This document shows, piece after piece, positions 32,757-50,152 of a DNA stretch of 64,000 nucleotides. This stretch comes from an uncultured Opitutus sp. (GTDB lineage Bacteria > Verrucomicrobiota > Verrucomicrobiia > Opitutales > Opitutaceae). Each line of letters begins with the position of its first letter. Positions within the stretch are counted from its first letter, which is position 1. Location of the stretch: the NCBI GenBank assembly GCA_966252355.1, contig CBINOT010000001.1:724-64723 (forward strand), in the 5' to 3' direction. A program made the position numbers and the translations under genes. The notes under the pieces were generated by a model. The model did no database searches, was not told the origin of the DNA, and saw only the letters and a list, made by a program, of their open reading frames with translations.

Positions 32757-35460
32757 TTATTGTCCTCCTGCGATGACAAACACTTTGGCGATGCCATCCG
32801 ATGCGGTCCTGACGGTTATTTCGTCCACCGGCGTTCCACCCGGCGTGGCGGCCAAACGATGTCCTCCCGACTGCGGTCGAAATACGATCGGTGCGTTCGC
32901 GATCGGCCGGCCGGCGCTATCCGTCACCTTCACGGAGATCGATCCGTCGGCGGCAAGTCCGTCCGCGGCATCTCCCAAGGGCGTTATCTGCGGCAGGATT
33001 CCGTTATAAAAATCATTAGGATCCGTGCCCGAGATATAGGCCTGCACCACCGATACGCCATTGCCGGTTGGCGATGCGTCGCGGTTGTTGGCGGCGAGCG
33101 ATAGTTGGTGTGCGATTTCCCACGCATCATCGATGCCATTCGCGTTCAGATCGGCGAACAACGGATTGTCGGCACCGGCGAAGATGTAATCGAGCCGAGT
33201 CGCGGTCGCCGCATCGCCGCGAATCGCGAAGGACGACAGGAAGGTTGCCGAGTTGTCGCGCAGCTTGAGATCGGCCCCGACCATGTTTCCGCCTGCGTAG
33301 AGATCCCAAGTCTTGCGCGCGAAATCGAGGCGCACAGTCAAGCGGGTCCACTCCGGCACTTGGTTGTCGTTGTCGATCGGCGCGGAGAAGGCGGTTGCCT
33401 GCCAACTGCCGCCTCCCGCCCCGTCGCCATTAAAGGCATTCAGCACGCCGCGCGCCCCTTCGCGAGCGAACGCAAACCGTGCTCCTTCGACCTCGAAGGT
33501 CGTAGAATTCGCGACGTCGGTTTCCGCGATCGGTCGCGCAAAAAAGTCGGCGAAAACGACGGTGTGGTCCGCCAGCGGCGCGAAGGTCTGCGCGACGCGC
33601 ACCGGCGGCGTGCCGGGTGCAAGAGCGATGGAATTCGCGCCATTTTTCGCAATATCGGTCACGACAGTGGCGCCGGCGGGCGGCGCGGCGTCCCAGCCGA
33701 GCTGCCCATTCAGGGTTCCGCCGGAGTAGCCTTCCTGCTCCTCGAAGTCGGCGGTATAGGGGAGCGTGGCGAGAATTGCGACCGCCACGCCGGCTGAATC
33801 GGCGTACAAGCCGAGGTTATCGTAACTGCGGACGCTGTAAGTGTACCGGCCCGGCGCCAACGCAGTGCCATCCGTGAACGCATAGACCGGCGGTATGCCC
33901 GTCGGAGCAATCACGGTTCCGAGTAGCGTGGTGCCCCGGTAGAATTCGACTTTGGCGATCGCGCCGTCCGCATCAGTGGTTGTTGCCGTGAGTGTCACGG
34001 CTCCACCGCGGGCAACCGTGAGCGGCGCGGCTACCGCGGCGGTCGGTGGCGTTTCCACCACTACGCGGCGTGGAGGCGAATCTGCGATTGCGCCGCGATT
34101 GTCGATCGCGCGTGCTGTGAACGTGTAGGTCCCCGCGGGCAGGTTGGAAATTGGTAGGCGATAGGGCGCGTTGGCAGATTCGCCGATCTTCGCGCCGTCC
34201 TGATAGAATTCGACTTTTGCGATGGTGCCGTCGGAGTCGCCGGCAGTCGCGGTGAGGGCCAGATTACCCGGCGCCGCTAAGATCGCGTTCGGTGCTGGCG
34301 TCGCAAACGTTACCGTCGGAGGCGCATTGACGATAAAGGTGACGGGCGCGGAGAGCGTCGAGGCGCCGGCGTTGTCGGTCGCTTTTGCCGTGAAGGCATA
34401 CGTCCCCGGCGGCACGTTGGTCCAATTGAAGCGGTAGGGAGGGGCGGCGGCTTCACCGAGCTTCGTGACGCCGGAATAAAACTCGACCATGAGGATGGCA
34501 CCGTCGACGTCGCTTGCGGTCGCGGACAAAGAGATCGCGGAAACAGGAAACGTCGCGATCGTCCTATTTCCCGGCGAGGTCAGCGCTACGGCGGGCCGAG
34601 CATTGATCGCGCGCAACAACCCATTGCCGTTCAACGTCAATTTGTCGGCGGCGGCTCCGCCTATAAGCTGGCTATTGCCATTGACTGTGATGGTTCCGCT
34701 GCCGGCTAAGATATAGCCATATACGGCAATTTTTCCGTTTAGAGTGATATCACCGTTCGATACCCTCAAATGCAGCCACTCGGGATGTTCCGAGGAGCCA
34801 GCGTCTCCATTGAGCGACGTCGTGTTCGCGATTTCGACGACTACGGGGCCGACGACTTGAAGCCGACTTGTACCGTTGAGCGTCAGGTGCTGGAAACGGT
34901 AAACGGCTGGCTCGGACGTACCCGCGACGCCTAGCGTGTACCCGCTCGAGCCGTTCGCCGTAAAATCGCCGTATGTGCCCGGCGGCACCGGCACGAGGCC
35001 GACGTTGCCGTTCAACGTTAGATTCCGCAGTCCGTTGAAGTCGACGTTTGCCTGGCTATTGTTGATCGTGACATTACGCATCCCCGGGGGGCATCGCAGG
35101 GGTGGAAATCGCCGGTATGGTCAGAGCATCCGAGCGATCGATCAGGTGCGCCAGTTTGGCGGTGCCGTTCAGCGTGACTTGGTAGTTAGTCGGCGTTGCG
35201 ACGCCCGATCCGGTGATGGTGCCGCCGAAGCTCGGCTTGCCGTTGAGGCGCACTGCCGGCGTGCCTGGGACCAGCAGGTCGCCGGTGACGATGGCGCCAC
35301 CATTCAGCGTCACCGCTTCGCCGAGCATTTGCTGCACGGAGCCGTCGACGGTGCCCGAAATGTTCGGTGCGTGGCGGACGAGAGTCACTCCGGTTTGGGC
35401 GCACGCGGCGGAGGCGAGCGCGAGACCTAGGGCGGCGGCAAATACACGGCGGGTGTTCAT
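32757..35460 (-). pseudogene. Large secreted Ig-like (Big) domain protein with a +1 frameshift at ~35081-35091
   Basis: Signal peptide MNTRRVFAAALGLALASAACA and TLNG beta-repeats in ORF 35074..35460 continue as RNVTINN...TLNGNVG in ORF 32757..35081. Three Big repeats (DxDGxIxKVEFY...TYxFTA.A.DN.GA), a DLNANGIDDAWE Ca-binding motif and an invasin-like C-terminus. The break is at a C6G4 run on the minus strand. Confidence 0.8.
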
Positions 35461-35648
35461 AGCGGCAGAGGGAGGCGGGCGCGATGCGCCGGCAGCTGGA
35501 GGTTGAAGCGAGGAAGCTGGGGGCTCGTGCACCACAGCCGACGTTCATTTCGCGATCACGCAGCCGACCGAAACGAACCGATACGAACACCAAGCGGGGA
35601 CGGGACTAGAGCCGACGCCCGACGGCGCGGTCAAATGAAAACAAGCAA

Positions 35649-35774: not shown

Positions 35775-36707
35775 TCACTGGCCGAGATTCGTACAGATGC
35801 TGAAAATCGCCTCGCACCCGATGACTGGACGAACAGGCCGCGCGATCGCGGGAATAACGTGATGTTTGATCCGAGCGACCGTGGGGAGGTCGAAGGCGTG
35901 TTCGGCGGCGGCGAGGGCGCGTTGGGCGTCTAGTAGCTCGGTCGAGGCAGGGTGGGGCGGTGCGCTAAGGCGGAGCATGGCGCAGGCTTCGTCGAGGAGA
36001 TCGACGGCTTTGTCGGGCAGCCGGCGATTCGGCGCGTGGGCGATCGATTGCTGGATCGCGGCGACGAGGGCATCATCCGTGATCTCGACACCATGGTGCT
36101 GCTCGTACCGCGGGCGCAAGCCGCGCAAGATGACGAGTGCTTGTTCCGGCGAAGGCTCGGCGATTTCCACCGGCTGAAATCGCCGCTCCAGCGCCGGATC
36201 GCGCGAGACCATGTCCTGCCACTCCGCAAGCGTCGATGCGCCCAGGCACGGCAGTTCGCCGCGGGCGAGCAATGGTTTTAAGAGATTTCCCGCGTCGAGT
36301 CCGCCTTCGCTCTTGCCCGCACGCCCTAGCAAATGCAGCTCGTCGATAAACAACAGTCGTCGCGCACCCGGCTTGCGCAGCTCGCCGACCAAATCCTGCA
36401 AGCGCTGCTCGAAATCCCCGCGATAGCCCGTGCCGGCCAAGAGGCTGCCGAGATTCAGCGAGAACAGCGTCACATCCGCCAGGTCGTGCGGAACCTCGCC
36501 GTTGACGATCCGACACGCCAAACCTTCCGCGATGGCGGTCTTCCCCACGCCTGGCTCCCCGAGGAGCACTGGGTTGTTTTTGGTTTTCCGCGCCAGGATG
36601 CGAATGACGCGGGCAATCTCTTGATCGCGACCGTACACGGGGTCCATTTTCCCGGCCCGCGCGCGAGCGGTCAGATCGACGCCAAACTGTTCGAGCGGTG
36701 AAGTCAT
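35775..36707 (-). CDS. Single-ring Clp/Hsp100-like AAA+ ATPase (NBD1 only)
   Basis: LEQFGVDLT...DPVYGRDQEI...KNNPVLLGEPGVGKT, YRGDFEQR, LFIDELH, DPALERRFQ, LPDKAVDLLDEA. No N-domain, short M-domain remnant, no NBD2. Confidence 0.9.
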   Translation of the reverse strand: MTSPLEQFGVDLTARARAGKMDPVYGRDQEIARVIRILARKTKNNPVLLGEPGVGKTAIAEGLACRIVNGEVPHDLADVTLFSLNLGSLLAGTGYRGDFEQRLQDLVGELRKPGARRLLFIDELHLLGRAGKSEGGLDAGNLLKPLLARGELPCLGASTLAEWQDMVSRDPALERRFQPVEIAEPSPEQALVILRGLRPRYEQHHGVEITDDALVAAIQQSIAHAPNRRLPDKAVDLLDEACAMLRLSAPPHPASTELLDAQRALAAAEHAFDLPTVARIKHHVIPAIARPVRPVIGCEAIFSICTNLGQ

Positions 36708-36758: not shown

Positions 36759-38405
36759 TCACCTCGGAAAGATCGTCTTGGCTTTTGTCTCTTTATCCGG
36801 ATCGCGTAGCGTCATGGGAGGCATGGTCGCTTTCTCCGGCTGATCGACGACACGCGCGATAATATAGGCGACGAGATTGCGCTGATGCACCTCGCGAGAT
36901 TTCGACTTGAAGAGGTAACCCACGATCGGCACGTCGCCCGCCACGGGAACTTTCGTCACACCGTCAACTTCGCCGATGCCCGATAGCCCGCCGAAGGCCA
37001 AGGCCTGGTTTTCTTCGACGTAAGTCGTGTACTCGTATTTTTGCGAGGAAACGACGGGAATGTTGATCGCATTGACCTGGCGGAAACTCTTGAGCGCGCC
37101 GACTTCGATGCGAACCACGAGCCGGATCCGGCGTTTGCCGCCCGCCTCGCCCTCGAAAATCGTGGGCACGACATTGACCGATGTGCCGATACGGCGAATG
37201 GAAACATTCGCGGTCGACGTGCCGAAACCGGCGTTCGGCGCGCCGGGGTACATATTATTCGAGGAAACAAATGGCTCCTCGTCACCGACCGAAAAATATA
37301 CCTCGTGATTATTTGCTGTGACCACGGAGGGGTTCTGCACGAGCCGGCTCTGCTTGTCGCTTTGCAGCGCGTTCATCTGGAGTGCAATGGCGTCCATGGC
37401 GAGTACGGCGCGCTCGCCTTCGGCGGAAATTTTGATCTTCGCGAGATCGATGCGCGGGGTCGACGATCCATCGCCGAGCGACACCCGCGGTTGGAAATTC
37501 TCCGGGTTGATGCCGAGCACCGTCTTCGGGTCCCACGTGGTCTCGAAAAAGCGAGCTTCGATATGCACTTGGCGAGGTGGCTGATCGATCAGCTTGAGGT
37601 ATCCAGCGACGAGGTCGTGCTGGCCCCGCGTGCAGGCGACGTAGAGGCCGTTCACATCGGGAATGTAAATGACCTTGGCATTCGACTTTCCGGATTCCGT
37701 GGATCCCTCGGCCGCCTTGCCTTGCACCGGCCGCTTTTCCTCTTGCTCCGCTGACTTGCTGTCGATCGCGACGCGCGTGGTCGGGAGCCCGATGAGATCA
37801 CGAATGTCGTCGATGATCTTCTGCGTCTGCGCCGAGAATACCATGCCGCCTTCGGTGCCGGCGGCGCCCCCGCCCGACAGATTAGAGACGGCGCCCACGG
37901 CGGAAAAGGCGTTCTGCGACGTTTTATACACGTCGAGATTCGTGTGTTTCAAAGAATAGACTTTTGCCACGAGCGCACCGACCGCTTCGCGGTTGAACTC
38001 CCAAATTCCGTCTCGGTACACCATCGTGAAGCGGTAACGGTCGCTCAATCGATTGAGCAGCCGCCACGGGGTGACTTTCGTGGTCAGGGTAACTCGCTCG
38101 GGAAACTCGTCGGCGGCGGGCGCGATGAAGTTCATGCCACTGGCGGTGGCGATGGTCGTGATCGCGCCGGCGAGCGTGTCGTCCTGGACGGGAATCGGCA
38201 CGGCAGGCAAGCGCTCGAGACGCGCGATCTCTGCGGCCTCGCTGATGACATCGGGCGCGTTGGGATCTTGCGCTGCTAGGATGACGGGGTCCCCAGCCAC
38301 GGACGCGAGTTTATTGCCGAGCAATGTCACAGGAACGTCGGCCCGCGCAAAAGCAACGACGACGGCGAGAACAGCAAAGAGCCGAAGTTTCATTCGATTT
38401 AACAT
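36759..38405 (-). CDS. Secretin (PilQ/GspD family)
   Basis: Signal peptide; LKLIDQPPRQVHIEARFFE; NPSVVTANN; VPVAGDVPIVGYLFKS...RNLVAYI. Confidence 0.92.
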   Translation of the reverse strand: MLNRMKLRLFAVLAVVVAFARADVPVTLLGNKLASVAGDPVILAAQDPNAPDVISEAAEIARLERLPAVPIPVQDDTLAGAITTIATASGMNFIAPAADEFPERVTLTTKVTPWRLLNRLSDRYRFTMVYRDGIWEFNREAVGALVAKVYSLKHTNLDVYKTSQNAFSAVGAVSNLSGGGAAGTEGGMVFSAQTQKIIDDIRDLIGLPTTRVAIDSKSAEQEEKRPVQGKAAEGSTESGKSNAKVIYIPDVNGLYVACTRGQHDLVAGYLKLIDQPPRQVHIEARFFETTWDPKTVLGINPENFQPRVSLGDGSSTPRIDLAKIKISAEGERAVLAMDAIALQMNALQSDKQSRLVQNPSVVTANNHEVYFSVGDEEPFVSSNNMYPGAPNAGFGTSTANVSIRRIGTSVNVVPTIFEGEAGGKRRIRLVVRIEVGALKSFRQVNAINIPVVSSQKYEYTTYVEENQALAFGGLSGIGEVDGVTKVPVAGDVPIVGYLFKSKSREVHQRNLVAYIIARVVDQPEKATMPPMTLRDPDKETKAKTIFPR

Positions 38406-38435: not shown

Positions 38436-39794
38436 TTATCTACGTACCACGGTGTCGATTTGCTGGTGTGCGACGTCGGCGATGAGATTCGGGTAGGGAA
38501 GTACGATCGCCAGGGCTACGATTCCGATGATCAGGCAGCAGAAAACCATCAGCGGCCACCGAATCACATTCGGCAGCACATTGAGCCGGGTCTCGGCGCG
38601 GTCGTTGATCTCTTCGACGATGCGGTTGATGAGCGTCGGCAAGTCGGCGCCTGCCATGCCGACTTCCATCTTTCCCGCGATTCTCAACCCATCTTCGCCG
38701 AGGCGGTGCCGTTCCGCCGTGAACGCTTCCTCCACGGATTCGCCAATCGCGATCCGGGAATAGCACGCTTCGAAAAACTCGCCGACCACGCAATTGCCCG
38801 CCGCCGCCGCCGCCATGGCAAATTGGTCACGCACTTTCGCGCCCGATTGCTTAAGCAGGATAAACGTGGAGAGTGCGCGCACGAGCGCCATCCACTGTAC
38901 AATCGGACCGATTAACCATAGCCGCGTCGAAAGACGTTGAAGCCAACTTGCGCGCAACACCCGTGGGGTGACGACGGCACCAGCCGTTACGGCCAACCCA
39001 AGAAGCGGGAACACGACGGCGGCATGCACACGGAGGAATTCCGCGACACGGTAGAAATGAAGCGTCAATGGCGGCAGCCGTCCCCCTAAGGTGCGGAACA
39101 GCTCGACCATCGGCGGGAGCGCCCAAATTTCCAGGACCATGGCGCCGACCAGGGTCAGCACGATCAAGCTGATAGGGTAGGCCAGCGCGCCAATGAATTT
39201 GCGCCAGATCCGACCATCTTTCTGTAGTCGCTCCGCGAGGGTGACCAGAAGCCCGCCGGCTTTGTCCAGTCCGGTGGCCGCGGCGGCTTCGACCATGGCC
39301 AGCTGCATTGGCGAAAAGACCTTGGGGAAGCAGCGCATCGCGACATGCAGGTCTTCGCCGTGCATCACCATATGGTGCAACCCGCCTATAATGCCGCGCA
39401 TGCGGGGCGATTGGGCGACGCGCGCGGCCATATTGAGCGCGAGGCTCATACCGCCGCCGGTCATTAGCGCGTTACCAACCGTCTCGTAAAAATCGGCGAT
39501 ATCCTGTCGTTGTGGCCACCGGTCGGCCCCAATCGTCTCGGTCGGACGCGTCGTAACCAAACGATAGGCCTCGTCTTTGCTCACACCTGCGCCCGCTAAA
39601 GCGGCTTCGGGATAGGGAGCGTATACCCGCACGCGACGGGGACGGACCGGCGAAGCGATGTTGATCTTCGATGGCCGCCGCGTGACTTCGAACGTATGGA
39701 TCTTCCAGGCGAAGCGGCGCAGATAGTCGGTTTTCGGCTTTGCCGTGACGAAGGGGATGGCAGTCCCGGAGGTAGTTGATGCTTGGCTAGCCAT
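38436..39794 (-). CDS. pilC: Inner-membrane platform protein PilC/GspF
   Basis: Two GspF domains (GEDLHVAMRCFPKVFSPMQLAMVEAA; ALAYPISLIVL) and three TM segments. Confidence 0.88.
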   Translation of the reverse strand: MASQASTTSGTAIPFVTAKPKTDYLRRFAWKIHTFEVTRRPSKINIASPVRPRRVRVYAPYPEAALAGAGVSKDEAYRLVTTRPTETIGADRWPQRQDIADFYETVGNALMTGGGMSLALNMAARVAQSPRMRGIIGGLHHMVMHGEDLHVAMRCFPKVFSPMQLAMVEAAAATGLDKAGGLLVTLAERLQKDGRIWRKFIGALAYPISLIVLTLVGAMVLEIWALPPMVELFRTLGGRLPPLTLHFYRVAEFLRVHAAVVFPLLGLAVTAGAVVTPRVLRASWLQRLSTRLWLIGPIVQWMALVRALSTFILLKQSGAKVRDQFAMAAAAAGNCVVGEFFEACYSRIAIGESVEEAFTAERHRLGEDGLRIAGKMEVGMAGADLPTLINRIVEEINDRAETRLNVLPNVIRWPLMVFCCLIIGIVALAIVLPYPNLIADVAHQQIDTVVRR

Positions 39795-39796
39795 GG

Positions 39797-42067
39797 TTAG
39801 GAGTCGTTCGAGCGTGGACGTCCGAGCGGAATTTCTTCCCACACCGCCTGCCACTGGTTCGCTTCGGCGAGCGTCGTTTCACCGCGGGCGACGAGCGCGA
39901 GCGCCGATTGATAGACGCGTGGAAATCGATTCGCCTTCATCCACTCTTCGACTGCCCTGACGGGTCGCTTTTCCGCGATCAACTGGGCGACATCTTCGGT
40001 GATCGGCAGCATCTCGAAAGCGCCGACCTGGCCTTTGTAGCCAGTGCCACGGCACTCGTCACAGTTACCGCGTATCGCGTCGAACAAACAGGCCGGAACA
40101 TCGACGTCGTGGCGGCGAAACAAATTCCGCTCCGGTTCGGTGACCGCCCGACGGCCTGTATCCTTGCAGCGCTTGCAAAGCCGGCGCACCAGACGCTGAC
40201 TGACGATGAGCGTCGCTGCATTAGCAAACATCTGCGCGTTCACGCCGGTATCCACCAGCCGCTCGACCGTATGCGCACATGACATCGTGTGCAGCGTCGC
40301 AAACACGATGTGCCCGGTGAGTGTAAGCCGAATGGCAGTTTCGGCGGTTTGACGGTCGCGGATTTCGCCGACCATGCCAACGTCGGGATCCTGGCGCAGA
40401 AAGCCCGACAACAAGACGTCCCAGTCGACGGCGCGCGCCTTATCGAGCTCCGCTTGATTGACGCCGTCCATCTCGTACTCCACCGGATCCTCCATCGTAG
40501 TGATGTTGATGTCCGCCGTGTTGATTTCAGCTAACGCGGAGAACGTAGTCGTCGTCTTGCCCGAGCCGGTTGGCCCGCAAAGCAAGATAAGGCCGTACGG
40601 CCGCGTGATCGCGCGCCGCATCAGCGCGGCTTCGCGGATCGGCATCAGTTCATCCAATGACGGCACTTCGCCGCGGCGCGGCAAATAGCGGATCGCCAGC
40701 TTCTGCCCGACGCCGCGGATCGGATACGCTGCGACACGCAAATTAACGATGTCCGCACCATGGAAGACGGTGCAGGCGCCGTCTTGCGGCATCCACCGTT
40801 CGGGCGCCATGCCGAATTGCTCTTTCGCAGCGCCGACCACCATTTTGCCGAAGTCGATTGGCATCTCGAGCCACTCTTCGAGGTAGCCGTCGATGCGCGC
40901 CCGGACGCGGTACGATTCCAAGCCAAGTTCGATGTGGAGATCCGTGGCGCCGTGCGAGATTCCTGCCGACAGCTCCTTCAAGAATACTTTTAACGGGTCA
41001 CGGTCCGGTCGCCGCGCGTTATACGACTCCAGCTCACGAATGTCTTTTTGTGTCAGGCGAATGACGCCTGGTTCCCGCGCATTCTCCGCGGCTCGCGCGC
41101 GTGTCCGCGCGTCCTCGATCTTAACCCGCGGCCGACCGCCGGTCTTCGTGTCGATCTCGTCACGATGGCGCGGAGGGACGTACGGTTCCGCGGACGCCGC
41201 TCGGTCGATCGCGCGGGTCGCATCGAGCAGCAAGAAATGCACGTGCCATCCTTCGCCCAGCTCGTTGAGCAGAATGTCTTCCACGTCGGGTTGCGGCAGC
41301 CGCTCCATCCCAACCCATACGTTTTTCGCGTATTCAGCCACGACCCGCAATCGGGCGGCCAGGGGCGCCGGAAGGCGCCGCGTCACCTGGTCCGGAGCGG
41401 CGACTACGGTCGGATCGGCGACGCCTCCGCGCTCGAGCAACACCCAGCATGCGCCGAGATAACCCGCGGGGAGATCGCTCTCGTTGACCTCGTCGGAATC
41501 GACGAGGATATCGTGCAGCCGCTGAGCGTCGACCTGCTGATTCGGAAAGTACTCGAGCAGAAATCGCAGTGCGGCACGGACGGTCGTCGGGCGAATTAAC
41601 TTCGCATCGGTGCCGGGAAACATCCGGCGCGGTTGCACGCAACCGTCGGACTCCCAGTCCGGCTTGGCGGCGTTTTCGATCAACGGCGCACAGAGTTTGA
41701 GGTGCCGTTCGTATTCCTGCTTTCTCAGCAGAACCGGCTGAAACCAGCCGGTCGGCAACGGGGCGTGGAAAGAGGGCTGGCAATGTCCCAACACGAGCAT
41801 TGGTCCGACCCGCCCGACCGGCAGCCAAGGAGTTTCCGCGGGATCGAACTTCGCGCCGATGAGATCGAGCCATTGTCCATACAGCTGAAGCGCCGACGCA
41901 TATACGGAGCCCGATGCCAGCGTTACAGGGTAAATGCGCTGGTTGATGAACGCATGTCGGACGTCGTCGCCACTCAGCCCAAAGTTTTGTTCGTTGCCGA
42001 CGAGACGGTCGCCGGCCGCAGTTGCGACCGCGTGGGAAACTGGCACCAGCGCGGATGTGGCGGTCAT
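39797..42067 (-). CDS. pilB: Extension ATPase PilB/GspE
   Basis: GPTGSGKTTT, TMEDPVEY, LRQDPDVGMVGEIRD, His box GHIVFATLH, tetracysteine CKRC...CDEC; divergent ~300-aa N-terminus; ATGA overlap. Confidence 0.93.
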   Translation of the reverse strand: MTATSALVPVSHAVATAAGDRLVGNEQNFGLSGDDVRHAFINQRIYPVTLASGSVYASALQLYGQWLDLIGAKFDPAETPWLPVGRVGPMLVLGHCQPSFHAPLPTGWFQPVLLRKQEYERHLKLCAPLIENAAKPDWESDGCVQPRRMFPGTDAKLIRPTTVRAALRFLLEYFPNQQVDAQRLHDILVDSDEVNESDLPAGYLGACWVLLERGGVADPTVVAAPDQVTRRLPAPLAARLRVVAEYAKNVWVGMERLPQPDVEDILLNELGEGWHVHFLLLDATRAIDRAASAEPYVPPRHRDEIDTKTGGRPRVKIEDARTRARAAENAREPGVIRLTQKDIRELESYNARRPDRDPLKVFLKELSAGISHGATDLHIELGLESYRVRARIDGYLEEWLEMPIDFGKMVVGAAKEQFGMAPERWMPQDGACTVFHGADIVNLRVAAYPIRGVGQKLAIRYLPRRGEVPSLDELMPIREAALMRRAITRPYGLILLCGPTGSGKTTTTFSALAEINTADINITTMEDPVEYEMDGVNQAELDKARAVDWDVLLSGFLRQDPDVGMVGEIRDRQTAETAIRLTLTGHIVFATLHTMSCAHTVERLVDTGVNAQMFANAATLIVSQRLVRRLCKRCKDTGRRAVTEPERNLFRRHDVDVPACLFDAIRGNCDECRGTGYKGQVGAFEMLPITEDVAQLIAEKRPVRAVEEWMKANRFPRVYQSALALVARGETTLAEANQWQAVWEEIPLGRPRSNDS

Positions 42068-43086
42068 CGTGCTTTCAGAAAGGCCGGCAACGGGTACGTG
42101 ACGTCGCATTGCACCGGGCGGTCGACGGTGCCTCCAGCCACATGAAAGATGAGCCGGTCGTCGCCGATTTCTTTGAGTTTCGTTTTCGAGTCGGGGATCG
42201 GCCGTTCACGGTTCGCGCCAACGATGACATCGTCGCCGACACGAAACACGCGGCTGTCGATCACGACGATCGGCACTGCGCCGCGAATGACGCTCCGCAC
42301 TCGCCCATCCAATGCGAGTTCGAGGCGCGGCGTGATTTCGTCGCTGTCGTCGTGCACGAGCGGCATCGGGCGGTGTTCCGCCTGAACCGCGGGCTGCAAC
42401 GGGTTGCGATGAAAACCCACGGCGACCGGACCTTTGAGCCGGGCCGGCAAGTATTCAGACCAGGCGATTGCGGCGATCGCGTCCGGTAACGTCGCGGGAT
42501 CCGCAAGCGTGGCTGGCATGAACGCACGCCGCGGAGCGTTATCGTGGAGTGGCTGAACCAATCGAATGGTTAGCCCCGTATTCCCGCCAACGTTGGACGA
42601 AAACTCGCATCCTTCGATCAGGGCGGCCGGGTAGCGCTCTTCGACTTTTCCCAGCCACGTCATCAACGCGGTGAGGTCCTTGCCGCTCGCGCGCAACGTC
42701 ACGCGTTGCACGCGCACCGGGAGACCCTGAAATGGATACCGCTCGGGTTGGGGCGTGATGGCATTGTCCGTGACCAGACCGAGCTGGCGTTGCGCGATCG
42801 CCTCGATGTCGGACCGCACTCGCTCGGCGGCGCCTTTCTCGGGTAGCCGCGCGACGGGCGTCCAGGCGGCGGCAAATTCGCGCACCGGTTCGATTGCCCG
42901 CTGCAGTCGCTCGACCTTTTGCCGCTGCGCGGTGCGTAGCTGAGCACCTGCCTTATCCGCCTCGAGCAGCTGCGAATATCGGATCCGAGCTTCGCTTGCG
43001 ACGGCGTTCGCCAACACCGCAGCGCCGGCAAGCACGACGAATACGACGGCAATTCCGAAAAACGTGCGGGTATAATAGCCTTTCAT
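42064..43086 (-). CDS. PilO/GspM-like alignment protein with extra C-terminal domain
   Basis: N-terminal TM segment, coiled coil, ferredoxin-like segment (VTLRASGKDLTALMTWLGKVE), then a PilP/GspC-like tail (VRSVIRGAVPIVVIDSRVFRVGD). Position in the operon supports this. Confidence 0.55.
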   Translation of the reverse strand: MKGYYTRTFFGIAVVFVVLAGAAVLANAVASEARIRYSQLLEADKAGAQLRTAQRQKVERLQRAIEPVREFAAAWTPVARLPEKGAAERVRSDIEAIAQRQLGLVTDNAITPQPERYPFQGLPVRVQRVTLRASGKDLTALMTWLGKVEERYPAALIEGCEFSSNVGGNTGLTIRLVQPLHDNAPRRAFMPATLADPATLPDAIAAIAWSEYLPARLKGPVAVGFHRNPLQPAVQAEHRPMPLVHDDSDEITPRLELALDGRVRSVIRGAVPIVVIDSRVFRVGDDVIVGANRERPIPDSKTKLKEIGDDRLIFHVAGGTVDRPVQCDVTYPLPAFLKAR

Positions 43087-45644: not shown

Positions 45645-46976
45645 TCAAGGTATGACTGAAATGGAAAGCGTCGTGCCGGTGCTGACCGATGTGCCGTTCT
45701 CGAACGATAGGCGTCCAATCGGCGTCCCGTCCGGTCCCGCCGGTGCGCTAAACTGCATCGACCCTGGCGCGTAAAAACCGCCGCGGTCTGCGGCGCTCGA
45801 CAATAACGGTACGCCCAAAACCGACTTTGTGCGCGAGAATGTCCACGAAGCGCCATCGGTCGCCGCGCCGTTCGGGACGACGGGAGTTGCGGCGACGACG
45901 ACGGCATCTGCCCACAACGACAATGCATCGGCCGCGAAAAACGATTTCAGGTCGCCGGAGAATGGGCCGGCGACATCGTGAAACGTCGCTTGGAAGCCGA
46001 TCGATTGCGCCATCCACGCGTTGCCGAACACCGCTTTTGTCGTCGCGGGAAAATCGATCTTCAATGTCACCGCGCCGCTTTGCACCGCATAGAAGCTCGC
46101 ATAGTCGAAAGCCAGCGTGGCGCCGCCGGCATTTTCGACGGTGTTGCGAGCGACGATGGGCGCTCCTAAGCCAATCTTGTAGTCGAAGTTTGTGTTCGTG
46201 CTCGGCTCGTAAATCTGGAGCCGGCCATCGGGTCGGGTAACAAACCAGCGCGTGCGCCCATCGGCCAAGGTCGCACTGCGATCGCCGCCGCCGACATTGC
46301 CGGGATATTCGGTCCAAGCCGCTCCGGTCACATGGTTCAGGAGATCGATGGCCGTAACGGTGTAGCGGACCGCATCGGGCGCGCGGACTGTGGCGAAGGG
46401 CTGGTTCAATACCATGCTCACGTTCGTGCCTGCAGCGCTGGCGGCGACGATCTCGAGCGTATAGGGATCGCCCGTCCCGGCGGGAGATAGAGCGTTCGCT
46501 GCGACAATGGAGCCATCCGCCGGTGTCACCACCGGTGCTGGCATGACTACGGGAGCCAGCGGAGCCGCGGGTTTCGTTCGAGCAGCTACCGCGCCGCCGG
46601 CCCCGATCTGATAGCCTGCGCCAACGAGTCGCGTTTCGGCCACGGTATTATCGAGGGCTGCGCGCAGTGGAACGATCCGAGCGATGCCAGGCGTTGCGGT
46701 CACTTCGTCGTGCGTGACTGCCAGCTGCGGCACCGTGGGGACGGATGCATTTGTCACCGACATCAGCCCCGGTGCGAGGGATGGATCGATTCCGGCGGCG
46801 AGCGCTTGGTCGTTGAACGATCGCCACGCTTCACGACGTCCTTGCTGGCCCATGGCGCTGTTCAGATCGTGAATGCGACTCACAAAGATCAGAAAAGGCC
46901 CGAGCACCACGCCGACGAACACAATGGCGATGACGAACTCGATTAACGTGAATCCAGCGATGCGCCTCGGTTTCAT
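45645..46976 (-). CDS. Large minor pilin/pseudopilin
   Basis: Class III signal MKPRRIAG|FTLIEFVIAIV; ATGA overlap. Confidence 0.85.
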   Translation of the reverse strand: MKPRRIAGFTLIEFVIAIVFVGVVLGPFLIFVSRIHDLNSAMGQQGRREAWRSFNDQALAAGIDPSLAPGLMSVTNASVPTVPQLAVTHDEVTATPGIARIVPLRAALDNTVAETRLVGAGYQIGAGGAVAARTKPAAPLAPVVMPAPVVTPADGSIVAANALSPAGTGDPYTLEIVAASAAGTNVSMVLNQPFATVRAPDAVRYTVTAIDLLNHVTGAAWTEYPGNVGGGDRSATLADGRTRWFVTRPDGRLQIYEPSTNTNFDYKIGLGAPIVARNTVENAGGATLAFDYASFYAVQSGAVTLKIDFPATTKAVFGNAWMAQSIGFQATFHDVAGPFSGDLKSFFAADALSLWADAVVVAATPVVPNGAATDGASWTFSRTKSVLGVPLLSSAADRGGFYAPGSMQFSAPAGPDGTPIGRLSFENGTSVSTGTTLSISVIP

Positions 46977-48331
46977 AGCCGCACGGTGTTGGTTGCCACG
47001 TACACCACGCGCGGAGCGATCGCTTCGATCGCACTGGGTAATGGCGCGCTGGTGACCGCATGTTCCGGAATTCCGGTGCTGCCGGACCAATACGAGAGAT
47101 GCCCTACGGTAATGGGGCCGTCGGGATTCATCGTGCTCGTCGGATCTAGAAACAGCGCCCCGTTGAGCGCGGTGCCGGCACCCGCGATTACGCGAATGTT
47201 GTAGCCGACGATCACGATGGGACGTGCGATCGTCGTGAGCTCAACCGTCAGCGGCCCTGTGCCGGAATCGGCGGGCCCCAAGATCAGAAGAAACAGCGGC
47301 GATGTTGCCGTGCTTCCTACCGAGTCGGATAGACGGATGGTTTTCCCAATCTCTTCGGTAAAGACGACCGCGGCATCTTTGATGAGCGTCACCGTCCCGT
47401 ACGTTCCGCTGCCGGCAAGCGCGAGGTCCCACGAAGTCACCAGTCCTGCCGTGCTCATGCCTGCCAGCGTGGCCGTGCCCGATGCAGCATCGAGGTCGTG
47501 AAAGTGCGTGATGCCCGCATACTCGGCCACCCGATCGACGAACAGTTGCGAGAAGAGGTATTGATACGCCGCGGCGAGCGTGGCGCGGCGACGATAGTGG
47601 TACGGCAGAACGCCCTTTTGCGCTTGAAGGTCTGGCACGAAAGCAGCATCGCGCGATGGCACGAGTCCCCTTGGCGAATCCGGCGACGGTGCGATGACCG
47701 GAGCGGCGTCCGTCCGACCGATCTCGACCGGAAGATCGTATGCGGCGATCGGGAAGCGCGTCAGGGGCACGGCCATCAAGCGTGCTTTTACCTGGGTGCG
47801 ATACGTGCGGGTCGCGTCGAGAACCGTCCGTTCGCTGGCGAACTCGAACGTCGCTTCCGGATAGGCGGCAACGCGCGGGCCAACGAGCAAAGCGAGCTCT
47901 GGCGTGAGATACGGCTGTAAATCGGCGGAGACCGAGCTCAGTGCATCAGGTACGGCCGTTGCGTTTGGAAATCCCACGGTCGACGGCAGCGAGCTCGGTA
48001 TGACCGTCGCCGTAATCGCCGGATCGCCGTTGGTCAGTTGCCGCAAATGCACGTTAAGTGCCTCGGCCAGTGGCGTCGTCGATACGGACACCGCGATTTG
48101 GCGCGCGTCCAAGATCGTTTCAGCGACGACGCGTTCCAACCGGACGCTTTCGGTCGCGCCTTGCCGGTACGTATCGTAAGCGCGCGATGTCGTCGCAACG
48201 CTCGTCAACACCAGCACCTGCATTGAAGCGACCACCCCCACGAACGCGACGATAACCACGAACATCACGATCAGGTAGCCACCGTTGCGGGAGCGTTGGA
48301 TGCCTCGGCTGACATTTCCGGCGATCGTCAT
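46973..48331 (-). CDS. PilX/GspK-like minor pilin
   Basis: RSRNGG|YLIVMFVVIVAFVGVV signal lacking Glu5, as in PilX/GspK; large globular C-terminus. Confidence 0.75.
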   Translation of the reverse strand: MTIAGNVSRGIQRSRNGGYLIVMFVVIVAFVGVVASMQVLVLTSVATTSRAYDTYRQGATESVRLERVVAETILDARQIAVSVSTTPLAEALNVHLRQLTNGDPAITATVIPSSLPSTVGFPNATAVPDALSSVSADLQPYLTPELALLVGPRVAAYPEATFEFASERTVLDATRTYRTQVKARLMAVPLTRFPIAAYDLPVEIGRTDAAPVIAPSPDSPRGLVPSRDAAFVPDLQAQKGVLPYHYRRRATLAAAYQYLFSQLFVDRVAEYAGITHFHDLDAASGTATLAGMSTAGLVTSWDLALAGSGTYGTVTLIKDAAVVFTEEIGKTIRLSDSVGSTATSPLFLLILGPADSGTGPLTVELTTIARPIVIVGYNIRVIAGAGTALNGALFLDPTSTMNPDGPITVGHLSYWSGSTGIPEHAVTSAPLPSAIEAIAPRVVYVATNTVRL

Positions 48332-49131
48332 GGCGATACGGCGAGAAAATAGCTGAAGCGCGAAAACGCGGGGATGTCATCGGCCTGACCACGACTACCG
48401 GCGTAAACCCAGGGATCGGGGAATACGGCGCAAGTGGGTCCTTCTTCGCTCACAGCCCCGACGCGGTAACGCAGCCAGGTGTGAACGGCGCCGATGAATA
48501 CGCGCGACGAAAACGCCGGGCGTTCAGCATAGGCATAGCGCTGCGCACCTTCTTCGGCGTCCCATAACTTTACCTCCCGTACGGTAAATGGAATCGTCTC
48601 GGTGCCGTCGGATACCGAAATATCGTGTCGGCGTACTTGGACGAGACAGGTAATCGCGAGTGAGTTTCCGTTCATCCCGACCATCGCGACGGAAAAATCT
48701 TCGGCCGCCGTGTTGGTCTCCTGATCGCCCAGCTCCGACGCATACAAATCGTAGAAGCTCTTGGCATCCATCGGCAGCCCCCGCGTCATGTCGGCGATCA
48801 CGGGAAGCGTTTGGAGCTTCAGAGGACGCACCTGAGCAGCCGCGGCCTCGGTCGGAATTGAGAGGTGTTGTCCGCCGAAGACGTAGATCGCCCGTGCTGC
48901 AGCGGCCCGATTGGTCAACGTGTGATGCAAGCGCACCGCGGACGGAAATGAGCCGAAGGTTGGCGCGATGGGCAGCTCTTCACTGGAAAGCGTCACCCGT
49001 TGCGGCTGCAATCCTCGGATAAGCGCGATCAAGCCCGCCAGCAACGCCACGACTACGATGGACGACATGACCAGCACGATGACGACTTCCGCCAAGACGA
49101 AACCGCCCTTTGCCTCTACCTTGGGCTTCAC
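48328..49131 (-). CDS. PilW/GspJ-like minor pilin
   Basis: MKPKVEAKGG|FVLAEVVIVLV class III signal. Confidence 0.82.
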   Translation of the reverse strand: MKPKVEAKGGFVLAEVVIVLVMSSIVVVALLAGLIALIRGLQPQRVTLSSEELPIAPTFGSFPSAVRLHHTLTNRAAAARAIYVFGGQHLSIPTEAAAAQVRPLKLQTLPVIADMTRGLPMDAKSFYDLYASELGDQETNTAAEDFSVAMVGMNGNSLAITCLVQVRRHDISVSDGTETIPFTVREVKLWDAEEGAQRYAYAERPAFSSRVFIGAVHTWLRYRVGAVSEEGPTCAVFPDPWVYAGSRGQADDIPAFSRFSYFLAVSP

Positions 49132-49527
49132 TCAATCAGGGTAGTTAAGAGTCCCGCCGGCTTTGTCGCGAAGGACGGTCTTTGCTTTCAAAGCGCCTGC
49201 CAGGGTCAGTGTATAACCGCCGGTTGCGCTTAACCAATCCGACGGCGATCCGGTCAAGGTCCCGGCGTTCACGAGCAAGGTTGAACGATCGGCGTCGGAC
49301 GCGGCGGCGGCCCACTGCGTCGCCGCATCGGGCACGGTCATGGAATAGGTGAGCCGGGCCGCGTTCACAATCCGCGCTTTATTGACAGCCGCGGCTTCGC
49401 GACCCGCCGGCACTACATTGGTAAACCCACCGACGACCATGGTGGCGAGCAGTCCAATCACCATGACGACGACAAGGATTTCGAGCAGCGTGAACGCTGC
49501 TCGTGCCGTAGGCCGAGTCTGGTGCAT
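49132..49527 (-). CDS. Type IV pilin-like protein
   Basis: ARAA|FTLLEILVVVMVIGLLA, with Ala rather than Gly at -1. Confidence 0.88.
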   Translation of the reverse strand: MHQTRPTARAAFTLLEILVVVMVIGLLATMVVGGFTNVVPAGREAAAVNKARIVNAARLTYSMTVPDAATQWAAAASDADRSTLLVNAGTLTGSPSDWLSATGGYTLTLAGALKAKTVLRDKAGGTLNYPD

Positions 49528-49530
49528 TGG

Positions 49531-49977
49531 CTACGGCCTTTGTGTACGATCGCCGAGCTTGGCGGCGAAGGTCGGAGGCTTGGTCGATGTTCCGGCCGTG
49601 AAAGTATACGCGGCGGGATTAACGACCTGTTTCAGCTTCACTTCTTGTTTCTGTCCGCCTGGCACCGTTGCGGGTATCTCCACCCCGGCGGTTAACGCGT
49701 TGATGGCGGAAGTGCCATCGGCCCAAACGGACGTGTCGACGCCAGAGTTAAATAGCGTCTCCGCAAACTGATTCAACACCTGCGCGTTGTGGGTTTTCGC
49801 GGTGTCGTTCGTTGCATCGAAAAATCGATCGACCGTCGGAATAACGAGTGCCGCTAAAAGTCCGAGCGCAACGATCACGAGCAAGACCTCGAACATCGTA
49901 AAACCCTGCCGCTTACGGCGGCGCGGTGACGGCGAAGCAAGCTGCGCAGCAGCCTGAGAGGTGAGATTTTGAGTCAT
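49531..49977 (-). CDS. Type IV pilin-like protein (probable major pilin)
   Basis: RRRKRQG|FTMFEVLLVIVALGLLAALVIP; first gene of the operon; alternative GTG start at 50004. Confidence 0.9.
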   Translation of the reverse strand: MTQNLTSQAAAQLASPSPRRRKRQGFTMFEVLLVIVALGLLAALVIPTVDRFFDATNDTAKTHNAQVLNQFAETLFNSGVDTSVWADGTSAINALTAGVEIPATVPGGQKQEVKLKQVVNPAAYTFTAGTSTKPPTFAAKLGDRTQRP

Positions 49978-50152
49978 AGGCGAGGAGGTTGGAATCTGGA
50001 GCACTTAGTTATGGTAAAATAGCTTTTATAGCGTCAACGACGAAAACGGCAATTAGATTTTACAATGGGTTGCGATTGGTGTCCTAGCACGACGCCGCCA
50101 TGGCACCGACGACGACCTTGCTCTCGCTCGTGCGAAATTATTGGCTGCCGTC

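Follow-up and report, generated by a model that had tools for sequence, protein, structure and literature searches.

What can an Hsp100/Clp protein do if it consists of the first ATPase module alone and is encoded at the end of a pilus operon? Hsp100/Clp machines are known from textbooks as unfoldases with two rings, or with one ring of the D2 type. The question is raised by a gene of an uncultured soil Opitutus sp. (Opitutaceae, Verrucomicrobiota), located in a stretch of 64,000 nucleotides (nt) that we analyzed as a whole and refer to as the window (GenBank assembly GCA_966252355.1, contig CBINOT010000001.1, positions 724 to 64,723 of the forward strand). The gene encodes a Clp/Hsp100-like AAA+ ATPase, termed D1-only in the following, and lies behind a secretin gene. 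We moderately favor the reading that D1-only contributes the half with the pore loop to an Hsp100-like ATPase encoded by two genes; the other half, D2-only, is encoded elsewhere in the genome, and the whole would serve a conjugation-derived apparatus resembling a pilus and a type IV secretion system (T4SS).

An Isolated Hsp100 D1 Module

The preliminary description of this gene proposed an intact first nucleotide-binding domain, with Walker A and B motifs, a YRG pore loop and an ERRF arginine finger, which begins at the D1 boundary without an N-domain, continues into a shortened middle (M) domain resembling the end of that of ClpB, and stops at the D1-D2 linker. This outline is borne out in every part. 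All hallmarks of an Hsp100 D1 module are present, namely Walker A and B (catalytic residues K56 and D122/E123), the pore-loop aromatic residue, sensor-1 (T159), the double arginine finger and AAA_lid_9. Pfam recognizes AAA and AAA_lid_9 (E=1.5e-24) and no Clp_N domain, the start of the protein corresponding to ClpB residue ~152: in a phmmer search of the PDB, residues 4-263 align with residues 152-410 of T. thermophilus ClpB (E=2.6e-90), and a second, weak alignment places residues 257-292 on ClpB 469-504, where motif 2 of the M-domain ends. Compared with the ClpB and ClpC-like proteins of the same genome, the M-region is ~64 amino acids (aa) shorter than that of ClpB and equals the ClpC hairpin in length. 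The chain ends at the ClpB position '...EEIAEVVAKWTGVP', in the helix ahead of the 'WTGVPV' D1-D2 linker, and the linker is thus incomplete. The two AAA+ modules are not combined in one polypeptide, as D1-only ends at residue 310 and the D2 module is encoded on another contig.

Profile scores reflect this architecture. The best NCBIfam model is ClpB (TIGR03346), with 368 bits against a cut-off of 1232 and model positions 155-411 of 853 covered, followed by ClpV/TssH (TIGR03345; 337 bits, cut-off 885) and ClpA (308 bits, far under the cut-off for full-length proteins). An AlphaFold2 model built from a 30-sequence alignment (predicted local distance difference test score, pLDDT, 89.4; predicted template modeling score 0.82) confidently places the two hairpin helices at 256-270 and 274-288 and a closing helix at 298-309, and its top Foldseek matches are the D1 modules of ClpC and ClpB (E ~1e-29). 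Arginine fingers of AAA+ proteins work in trans, which implies an oligomeric ring; the conserved fingers and pore loop of D1-only indirectly support the prediction that it may form a hexameric ring and thread a substrate.

Conservation, Phylogeny and Selection

Among 5.8 billion proteins, a word-indexed search matched D1-only to about 40 of 298-332 aa at 55-83% identity, and those carrying an organism name were all from Opitutaceae. Overall, at least 34 orthologues (298-343 aa, 51-83% identity) share one architecture of ~310 aa; for those of 298-332 aa, which number 30 or more, the identity is 53-83%. Within an alignment of 30 members, 80 columns are invariant, catalytic residues included; these cover G50 and P52-K56 of Walker A, D122, E123 and H125 of Walker B, R96, G97, F99 and E100 of the pore loop, and R175/R176, pore-loop position 95 is aromatic in 29 members, and sensor-1 T159 is invariant or nearly so. 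Conservation extends beyond the ATPase core, since F272, D273, L274 and A278 of the M-hairpin are conserved in at least 90% of the members, and the C-terminal segment follows the pattern FDLxxVARLRxxVLPxL...RPxLDAAxI, with the closing-helix consensus RPxLDAAxIxxV. An exhaustive search of 1.84 billion representatives shows how narrow the family is, as clustering at 50% identity leaves two representatives of it, and PLSDB holds no close plasmid relative, the best match being a protein of an actinobacterial plasmid with 33% identity. Eight higher-scoring proteins from the representative library (P0121-P0128) were rejected as members on the basis of their Pfam domains, which mark them as chimeric or duplicated-D1 metagenome proteins. 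Some of them contain two D1 modules, others a D1 module fused to unrelated domains such as Cas_Csd1; probably they are chimeras of assembly or gene calling, which outscore true members in profile searches.

Selection on the gene was estimated as the ratio of nonsynonymous to synonymous substitution rates (dN/dS, omega) with the NG86 method, YN00 being unusable owing to saturation of dS. For the closest pair, the window's genome (G000) and P0002, dN=0.129 and dS=1.76 give an omega of ~0.07, which is indistinguishable from the values of the operon neighbors (secretin 0.056, PilB 0.091, PilC 0.084). More distant pairs yield 0.16-0.27 with saturated dS, and these values are to be read as resembling upper bounds. 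The preliminary description had argued for adaptation rather than decay, and this view has held: the relatives are not full-length proteins with a unique truncation in this genome, and omega is not near 1. Because at least 34 orthologues of the same length exist, their catalytic residues are invariant and dN/dS is well under 1, the gene does not represent a decayed fragment, and that D1-only is a functional, adapted gene is well supported by these comparisons. A pseudogene left by truncation of a ClpB, ClpC or ClpV gene is hardly credible for the same reasons and can be regarded as effectively refuted. Such an origin would agree with NCBIfam scores far under the full-length cut-offs and with an IS3 remnant and decayed genes nearby, but length and boundaries are kept across three genera and many metagenomes, dN/dS lies at 0.07-0.27, and no ClpB-like sequence is detectable in the flanks.

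In a tree of D1 domains, all 34 D1-only sequences form a single clade (SH-aLRT, a Shimodaira-Hasegawa-like approximate likelihood ratio test, 99), with a long branch to the full-length Hsp100s. The clade lies outside the tight clade of Opitutaceae ClpB, whose terminal branches are ~10 times shorter, and a recent duplication of the host clpB is rejected on these grounds. The same data bear on a very unlikely reading, according to which D1-only would act on the chaperones of its host, either by joining mixed ClpB oligomers or by binding DnaK via its motif-2-like helix, and would redirect or inhibit the disaggregase. D1-only is 59-60% identical to the D1 of host ClpB, and its retained FDLxxVARL(R/K)(Y/H/F)xV(L/I)P aligns with AYDLNKVAELRHGRIP of ClpB; yet its rate of evolution is about ten times that of the host D1, from which it does not descend, it lacks motif 1 and the greater part of motif 2 of the M-domain, and the gene context shows no link to clpB or dnaK.

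The housekeeping clpB gene of the window's genome (C129:2119-4629, minus strand; L058) is itself interrupted by an in-frame TAG halfway through the M-domain, between AREQAGGL and LQWEKEK. In eight other ClpBs from Opitutaceae the residue here is Lys or Arg (AAG, AAA, CGG, CGT, CGC), so that a single change, for example from AAG to TAG, would explain the stop. Either a genuine nonsense mutation or an error in the assembly of this 378-contig genome may lie behind it.

A Separate D2-Only ATPase and Its Companions

A search with the ClpV model uncovered a second incomplete Clp-like gene in the same genome, D2-only (352 aa; C21:20396-21451, minus strand). Its product, a stand-alone D2 with AAA_2 and ClpB_D2-small domains, corresponds in alignment to residues 549-837 of T. 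thermophilus ClpB and begins at the helix 'LxxLExxLxxRLLGQxEA', ~18 residues beyond the point at which the D1-only chain stops. Walker A and B, sensor-1, the arginine finger and the GAR sensor-2 are retained, and the GYVG(Y) pore loop is deleted, together with its tyrosine, in all orthologues. A conserved ClpP-docking motif [LIV]-G-[FL] is not present; the corresponding loop reads NSGYSAI in G000 and NGYHAI or APYSAL in orthologues (APY in genus g39), the glycine not being conserved. D2-only orthologues number about 100 overall. A scan of genome contigs from public assemblies with D2-only gave five loci, two of which are ordinary full-length Clp genes of Phycisphaerales.

D2-only is flanked by two conserved genes, X (~176 aa) upstream and Y (~180 aa) downstream. 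Neither protein belongs to a Pfam, NCBIfam, PADLOC or PHROG family, and profile searches found no PDB match for either. For Y, the AlphaFold2 model is mediocre (pLDDT 66.7) and Foldseek gave no match at E<0.5, and thus no signal of a MecA/ClpS-like adaptor. For D1-only, D2-only, X and Y as a set, PADLOC and PHROG returned generic AAA matches only, which leaves a defense-system reading unsupported; it was rejected, as PADLOC yielded nothing beyond such matches. A second copy of X, 57-64% identical to the copy on C21, lies away from the D2-only genes (C259:3452-3919).

In G000, in G007 (Opitutus sp. ER46) and in the metagenome-assembled genome (MAG) G067, the X-D2-Y genes are followed by a cluster with the sizes and order of VirB8, VirB9 and VirB10, and then by genes for a lipoprotein and a Secretin_N protein. 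On C21 this amounts to a ten-gene cluster (L070:1243-10030) of X, D2-only, Y and genes for proteins of 236, 358, 414, 221, 481, 223 and 200 aa, in which the 414-aa protein falls into the Pfam TrbI/VirB10-like family, the 481-aa protein matches Secretin_N weakly and the 223-aa protein is a coiled coil; the G007 counterpart of the 221-aa protein, 200 aa long, starts like a lipoprotein. A Pfam scan of eight genes of the C21 cluster (Y and the last two left out) and of genes of L005 revealed no VirB4-type family, and no search with a VirB4 model was made in G000.

Co-Occurrence and Linkage of D1-Only and D2-Only

The distribution of both genes was surveyed in 151 Opitutaceae genomes of 63 genera. 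D1-only is present in ten of them, comprising three out of five from the window's genus and every genome of genera g16 (four) and g39 (three). D2-only orthologues (at least 51% identity) and the operon secretin (at least 43% identity) occur in the identical ten, and the two genomes of the window's genus that are devoid of D1-only are devoid of D2-only and the secretin alike. Every other 'third Clp' checked in Opitutaceae genomes is of full length. When 401 genomes sampled across the phylum were searched, D2-only orthologues were found in six only, all among the ten (g1, g39).

The two genes are also neighbors in some lineages. The three g39 genomes have the order D2-Y-D1, in which D1-only shows 51-52% identity and the same architecture, and a detailed reading of one of them, G039, shows an overlap of 29 nt between Y and D1; the g39 secretin is followed by genes for von Willebrand factor A (VWA) proteins and not by D1-only. 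Contig L077 has the order PilC, secretin, D1-only, X, D2-only, and three more instances have D1 and D2 on one contig (L005/L089, P0014/P0312 and G067). The initial proposal of a one-ring chaperone of the secretion machine is thus supported in part: membership in an island of pilus and T4SS-like genes stands, but one-ring self-sufficiency sits less well with co-occurrence of D2-only in ten of ten genomes and adjacency in two independent orders. Judged from these sequences, D1-only is probably not a self-sufficient one-ring machine.

In G067 (MAG JAEWKR010000017.1), D1-only has been separated from the pilus machine by a natural deletion. Here, the secretin gene is reduced to its last 180 codons ahead of an intact D1-only (L078:9451-10942), PilC is gone, no PilB orthologue is present and the pilus operon is otherwise absent from the genome, which keeps D1-only along with X-D2-Y and the VirB8/9/10-like cluster. 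Because of G067, the tie of D1-only to the D2/X/Y and VirB8-10-like module may equal or exceed that to PilB and the secretin, and together with the adjacency data this genome tilts the association towards D2/X/Y.

A Proposed Two-Gene Hsp100 and Its Weighing

The two-gene arrangement can be pictured as follows. D1-only, made of a classic-clade Hsp100/Clp D1 module and a ClpC-sized M-hairpin, would be a functional, cytoplasmic AAA+ ATPase, and it belongs to a fixed gene set that a few Opitutaceae genera have and that falls into three modules: A, a type IV pilus or type II secretion system (T2SS)-like operon (pilins, PilT, PilB, PilC and secretin); B, the VirB8/9/10 (TrbI)-like envelope cluster; and C, X, the D2-only ATPase and Y. 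Its hexameric ring would bear the only substrate-gripping tyrosines of the pore and would work with the separately encoded ring of D2-only, in which the ATPase residues are kept and the pore loop is lost. In Hsp100s, D2 is the module that supports oligomerization. Conservation of the trans-acting arginine fingers makes a ring probable for D1-only and D2-only alike, and the two rings might stack into one D1/D2 assembly, possibly nucleated by X or Y. Such a 'split Hsp100' would remodel or unfold a protein of the apparatus, be it a transferred substrate, pilins or a complex destined for recycling. What the sequences themselves show are domain anatomy, conservation, selection, operon position, co-occurrence and the alternative adjacencies; a ring, contact between D1 and D2, activity as an unfoldase and the client of D1-only are predictions from these features.

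Several observations weigh against this proposal. In most lineages, the window's included, D1 and D2 reside in separate loci. D1-only is ~60% identical to the D1 of ClpB, and D2-only scores ~108 bits with ClpB D2, its identity with the D2 of the genome's own ClpB being 31-35%; because D1-only is so much nearer to ClpB than D2-only is, the pair did not arise by recent fission of one gene. D2-like genes with 37-41% identity are found near T4SS-like genes in ten genomes lacking D1-only, where they lie near TrbI-like genes and, in two cases, near genes resembling that of the coupling protein; X and Y were absent within 10 kb of the D2-like gene in the four of these ten genomes examined. D2-type ATPases thus need no D1 partner in general and are an older accessory of T4SS-like clusters in Opitutaceae, with D1-only, X, Y and the pilus operon marking a sub-lineage. 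As all modules co-occur, the phyletic pattern fits a partnership of D1 with D2 as well as one of D1 with the pilus, and three genera with two absences inside one genus amount to few independent events. Contact between the two proteins is conjectural, and isolated D1 fragments of ClpB oligomerize poorly without D2, so that ring formation by D1-only is not guaranteed. This last point cuts both ways, as it fits the need for a partner and at the same time warns against taking a ring for granted.

The Pilus Operon

The coordinates of D1-only, its motifs and the operon genes are collected in Table 1.

Table 1. D1-only, its sequence motifs and the genes of the surrounding operon (window coordinates).
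Feature	Position	Strand	Basis
D1-only Clp/Hsp100-like AAA+ gene ('mini-Clp'), 310 aa	35775..36707	-	intact ORF (open reading frame) with ATG start
Walker A GEPGVGKT, residues 50-57	36537..36560	-	read from sequence
D1 pore loop AGTGYRGDFE, residues 91-100, Tyr95	36408..36437	-	sequence and family alignment
Walker B LLFIDELH, residues 118-125	36333..36356	-	sequence and family alignment
Arginine fingers R175/R176 (ERRF)	36180..36185	-	sequence and family alignment
Short M-domain, two-helix hairpin, residues ~249-290, including motif-2-like AFDLPTVARIKHHVIP	35838..35963	-	alignment and AlphaFold2
C-terminal closing helix, equivalent to ClpB 'VSQEEIAEVV'	35778..35828	-	AlphaFold2 and alignment to own ClpB/ClpC
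Secretin, 548 aa, directly upstream in the operon	36759..38405	-	Pfam Secretin E=3.7e-26; GspD/PilQ-type under cut-off
PilC/GspF-like platform protein	38436..39854	-	Pfam T2SSF; NCBIfam GspF/PilC under cut-off
PilB/GspE-like assembly ATPase	39797..42109	-	Pfam T2SSE E=1.1e-81, residues 379-751; PilB/GspE NCBIfam
Two conserved genes, 340 and 495 aa	42064..44570	-	no Pfam/NCBIfam match; order kept in L004, L005, L083
PilT-family (retraction-type) ATPase, 341 aa	44616..45641	-	NCBIfam pilT_fam E=1.1e-51, under cut-off; Pfam T2SSE
Operon head: pilin/pseudopilin-like genes and two of no assigned family (481, 452, 267, 131, 157 aa)	45645..50004	-	

The position of D1-only directly behind the secretin gene, noted from the outset, is confirmed by a gap of 51 nt between secretin stop and D1-only start, in which no terminator-like site is found on the coding strand. 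D1-only is the terminal gene of a conserved operon that recurs in L004, L005, L006 and L083, the order being identical, with D1-only last, in L083 (83% identity), L004 (Opitutus sp. ER46, 68%) and L005 (62%), and the genes downstream of it vary among these three. A secretin orthologue precedes D1-only in most lineages, and in five of them (G016, G142, L075, L076 and L077) the D1-only start and the secretin stop overlap by 4 nt. At the head of the operon, three of the five genes carry N_methyl motifs, a GspG-like N-terminus is matched as well, and the gene order is kept in Opitutus sp. ER46. The PilB/GspE-like ATPase has an N-terminal extension of ~360 residues without a family match, far longer than the usual N1/N2 or MshEN-type domains.

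It is this arrangement that speaks for an unlikely alternative, the model of the preliminary description, in which D1-only suffices by itself as a single-ring AAA+ chaperone or unfoldase dedicated to the type IV pilus/T2SS-like machine, acts independently of D2-only and might extract pilins, handle the secretin or PilB, or unfold cargo. Terminal placement in the pilus operon of most lineages, frequent translational coupling to the secretin, divergence at the rate of secretin, PilB and PilC, and an intact pore loop with arginine fingers are all in line with it. Members of the classic AAA clade, to which D1 belongs, do act as single rings, as in FtsH, Vps4 and katanin. However, D1-only has stayed intact in G067 despite the loss of PilB, PilC and most of the secretin, it stands outside the pilus operon and after D2-Y in g39, and its co-occurrence with D2-only is perfect.

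Downstream of D1-only, past an AT-richer gap of ~240 nt, the window contains an ORF of 153 aa, called as 128 aa on an identical contig, followed by a gene for a 774-aa protein with three Big_7 immunoglobulin-like repeats (32757-35535, minus strand). This pair is present on the identical metagenome contig and was not seen behind D1-only in the other genomes read. A remnant of an IS3-family transposase lies beyond the 774-aa gene, and decayed genes occur in the neighborhood.

A Possible Conjugative-Element Context

In related contigs, X and D2-only are located near genes for a TrwB/TraG-type coupling protein, a TrwC relaxase, RecT and an SNF2 helicase, with coupling protein and relaxase lying a few kb from X-D2 (L089:1-1577 and L090:1-2307). 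In Opitutaceae bacterium EW11 (G121), a coupling-protein gene directly adjoins the secretin gene (C4:188860-190491), and the g39 genomes carry the coupling-protein orthologue on the contig of the pilus operon. With coupling protein and relaxase so placed, a conjugative element equipped with a pilus of the PilB/PilT type is suggested. The coupling-protein orthologue is absent from G000, G007, G067 and the two g16 genomes searched; G000 gave no match to the coupling protein, RecT or the other neighbors on L089/L090 that were used as queries, the relaxase itself not having been searched for there. Because the coupling protein, and in G000 also RecT, is missing, the gene set looks like the machinery of a conjugative element that has been partly domesticated in the window's lineage.

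Such a context could also mean that D1-only, X, D2-only and Y are cargo or establishment functions of a mobile element, for instance in DNA processing, anti-defense or host takeover, with a purely physical link to the pilus and VirB-like genes. The neighbors of X-D2 in related contigs, the coupling-protein orthologue on the same contig in g39 and the patchy distribution (10 of 151 genomes) agree with this reading, which we nevertheless regard as rather improbable: the five genomes without the coupling protein still keep D1, X-D2-Y and modules A/B under purifying selection, G000 lacking RecT too, PADLOC and PHROG gave nothing past generic AAA, and D1-only is translationally coupled to the secretin gene.

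A more specific version of the two-gene proposal would have D1-only and D2-only form the rings of a split Hsp100, assisted by X and Y, as the dedicated substrate unfoldase of a conjugation-derived hybrid of type IV pilus and T4SS; taken as a whole, this version is quite unlikely. According to a study from 2018, the identity of the unfoldase for T4SS substrates 'remains unclear' (PMC5826034), and it may be speculated that the D1/D2 pair is a candidate. If so, no stand-alone unfoldase that supplies a T4SS-type channel would have been identified before it. A Clp-type ATPase pair inside an island of pilus and T4SS-like genes bears in any case on the question of which ATPase unfolds T4SS substrates. 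Full-text literature searches found no described D1-only Clp and no Clp-like genes in pilus/T4SS islands, and a conserved, selected family made of D1 alone has no described precedent in that literature. Should D1 and D2 assemble, they would constitute a natural experiment on the division of labor between rings, with pore loops in D1 alone and D2 perhaps serving for assembly or as a motor, and would be informative on the contribution of the covalent D1-D2 linker and on adaptor-driven assembly. The names of Opitutus sp. ER46, which belongs to the window's genus, and Opitutaceae bacterium EW11 suggest that these are cultured strains.

Comparison with Known Systems

Conjugative elements that bring their own type IV pilus include those with the R64 thin pilus and the pili of integrative and conjugative elements of the PAPI-1/pKLC102 type. 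The island described here resembles them in combining a PilB/PilC/secretin/pilin operon with T4SS core-like genes, and the islands of relatives also carry a coupling protein and a TrwC relaxase, whereas G000 has no match to the coupling protein of L089/L090. To our knowledge, no Clp-like ATPases occur in the R64 or PAPI-1/pKLC102-type systems.

ClpV (TssH), the analogue named in the preliminary description, would offer a parallel in that a secretion or injection apparatus has recruited an ATPase of the Clp family; the analogy would be one of role and not of ancestry. ClpV is a full N-D1-D2 protein encoded in the locus of a type VI secretion system, in contrast to the type IV pilus/T4SS-like context of D1-only, and no protein of the window's genome scored above the TssH cut-off (TIGR03345). 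With regard to D2-only, Skd3 differs in carrying ankyrin repeats, in keeping its pore loop and in having no separate D1 protein as a partner, while in D2-only the pore loop is deleted and a separate D1 gene co-occurs. Skd3 (human CLPB) is a precedent in that an Hsp100 module of the D2 type can exist and work without D1 (PMC7343390).

ClpC shares with D1-only the length of the M-hairpin, and the top Foldseek matches are ClpC chains over ~315 columns, but D1-only has neither an N-domain nor a D2 in its chain, and D2-only has no conserved ClpP-docking loop. Assembly of ClpC needs an adaptor of the MecA type. This need offers a possible analogy for X and Y, although the predicted fold of Y gave no MecA-like or other significant match.

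ClpB/Hsp104 differs from the present system in that D1-only is devoid of the N-domain and of ~64 aa of the M-domain, D1 and D2 are separate polypeptides, usually from separate loci, and D2-only has no GYVG pore loop. The likeness is nevertheless extensive. The D2 of ClpB can be aligned with D2-only from its first helix to the end, and D1-only is ~60% identical to ClpB D1 over 260 residues, possesses all ATPase and pore-loop motifs, and retains the tail of motif 2 as well as the helix that closes the small subdomain of D1.

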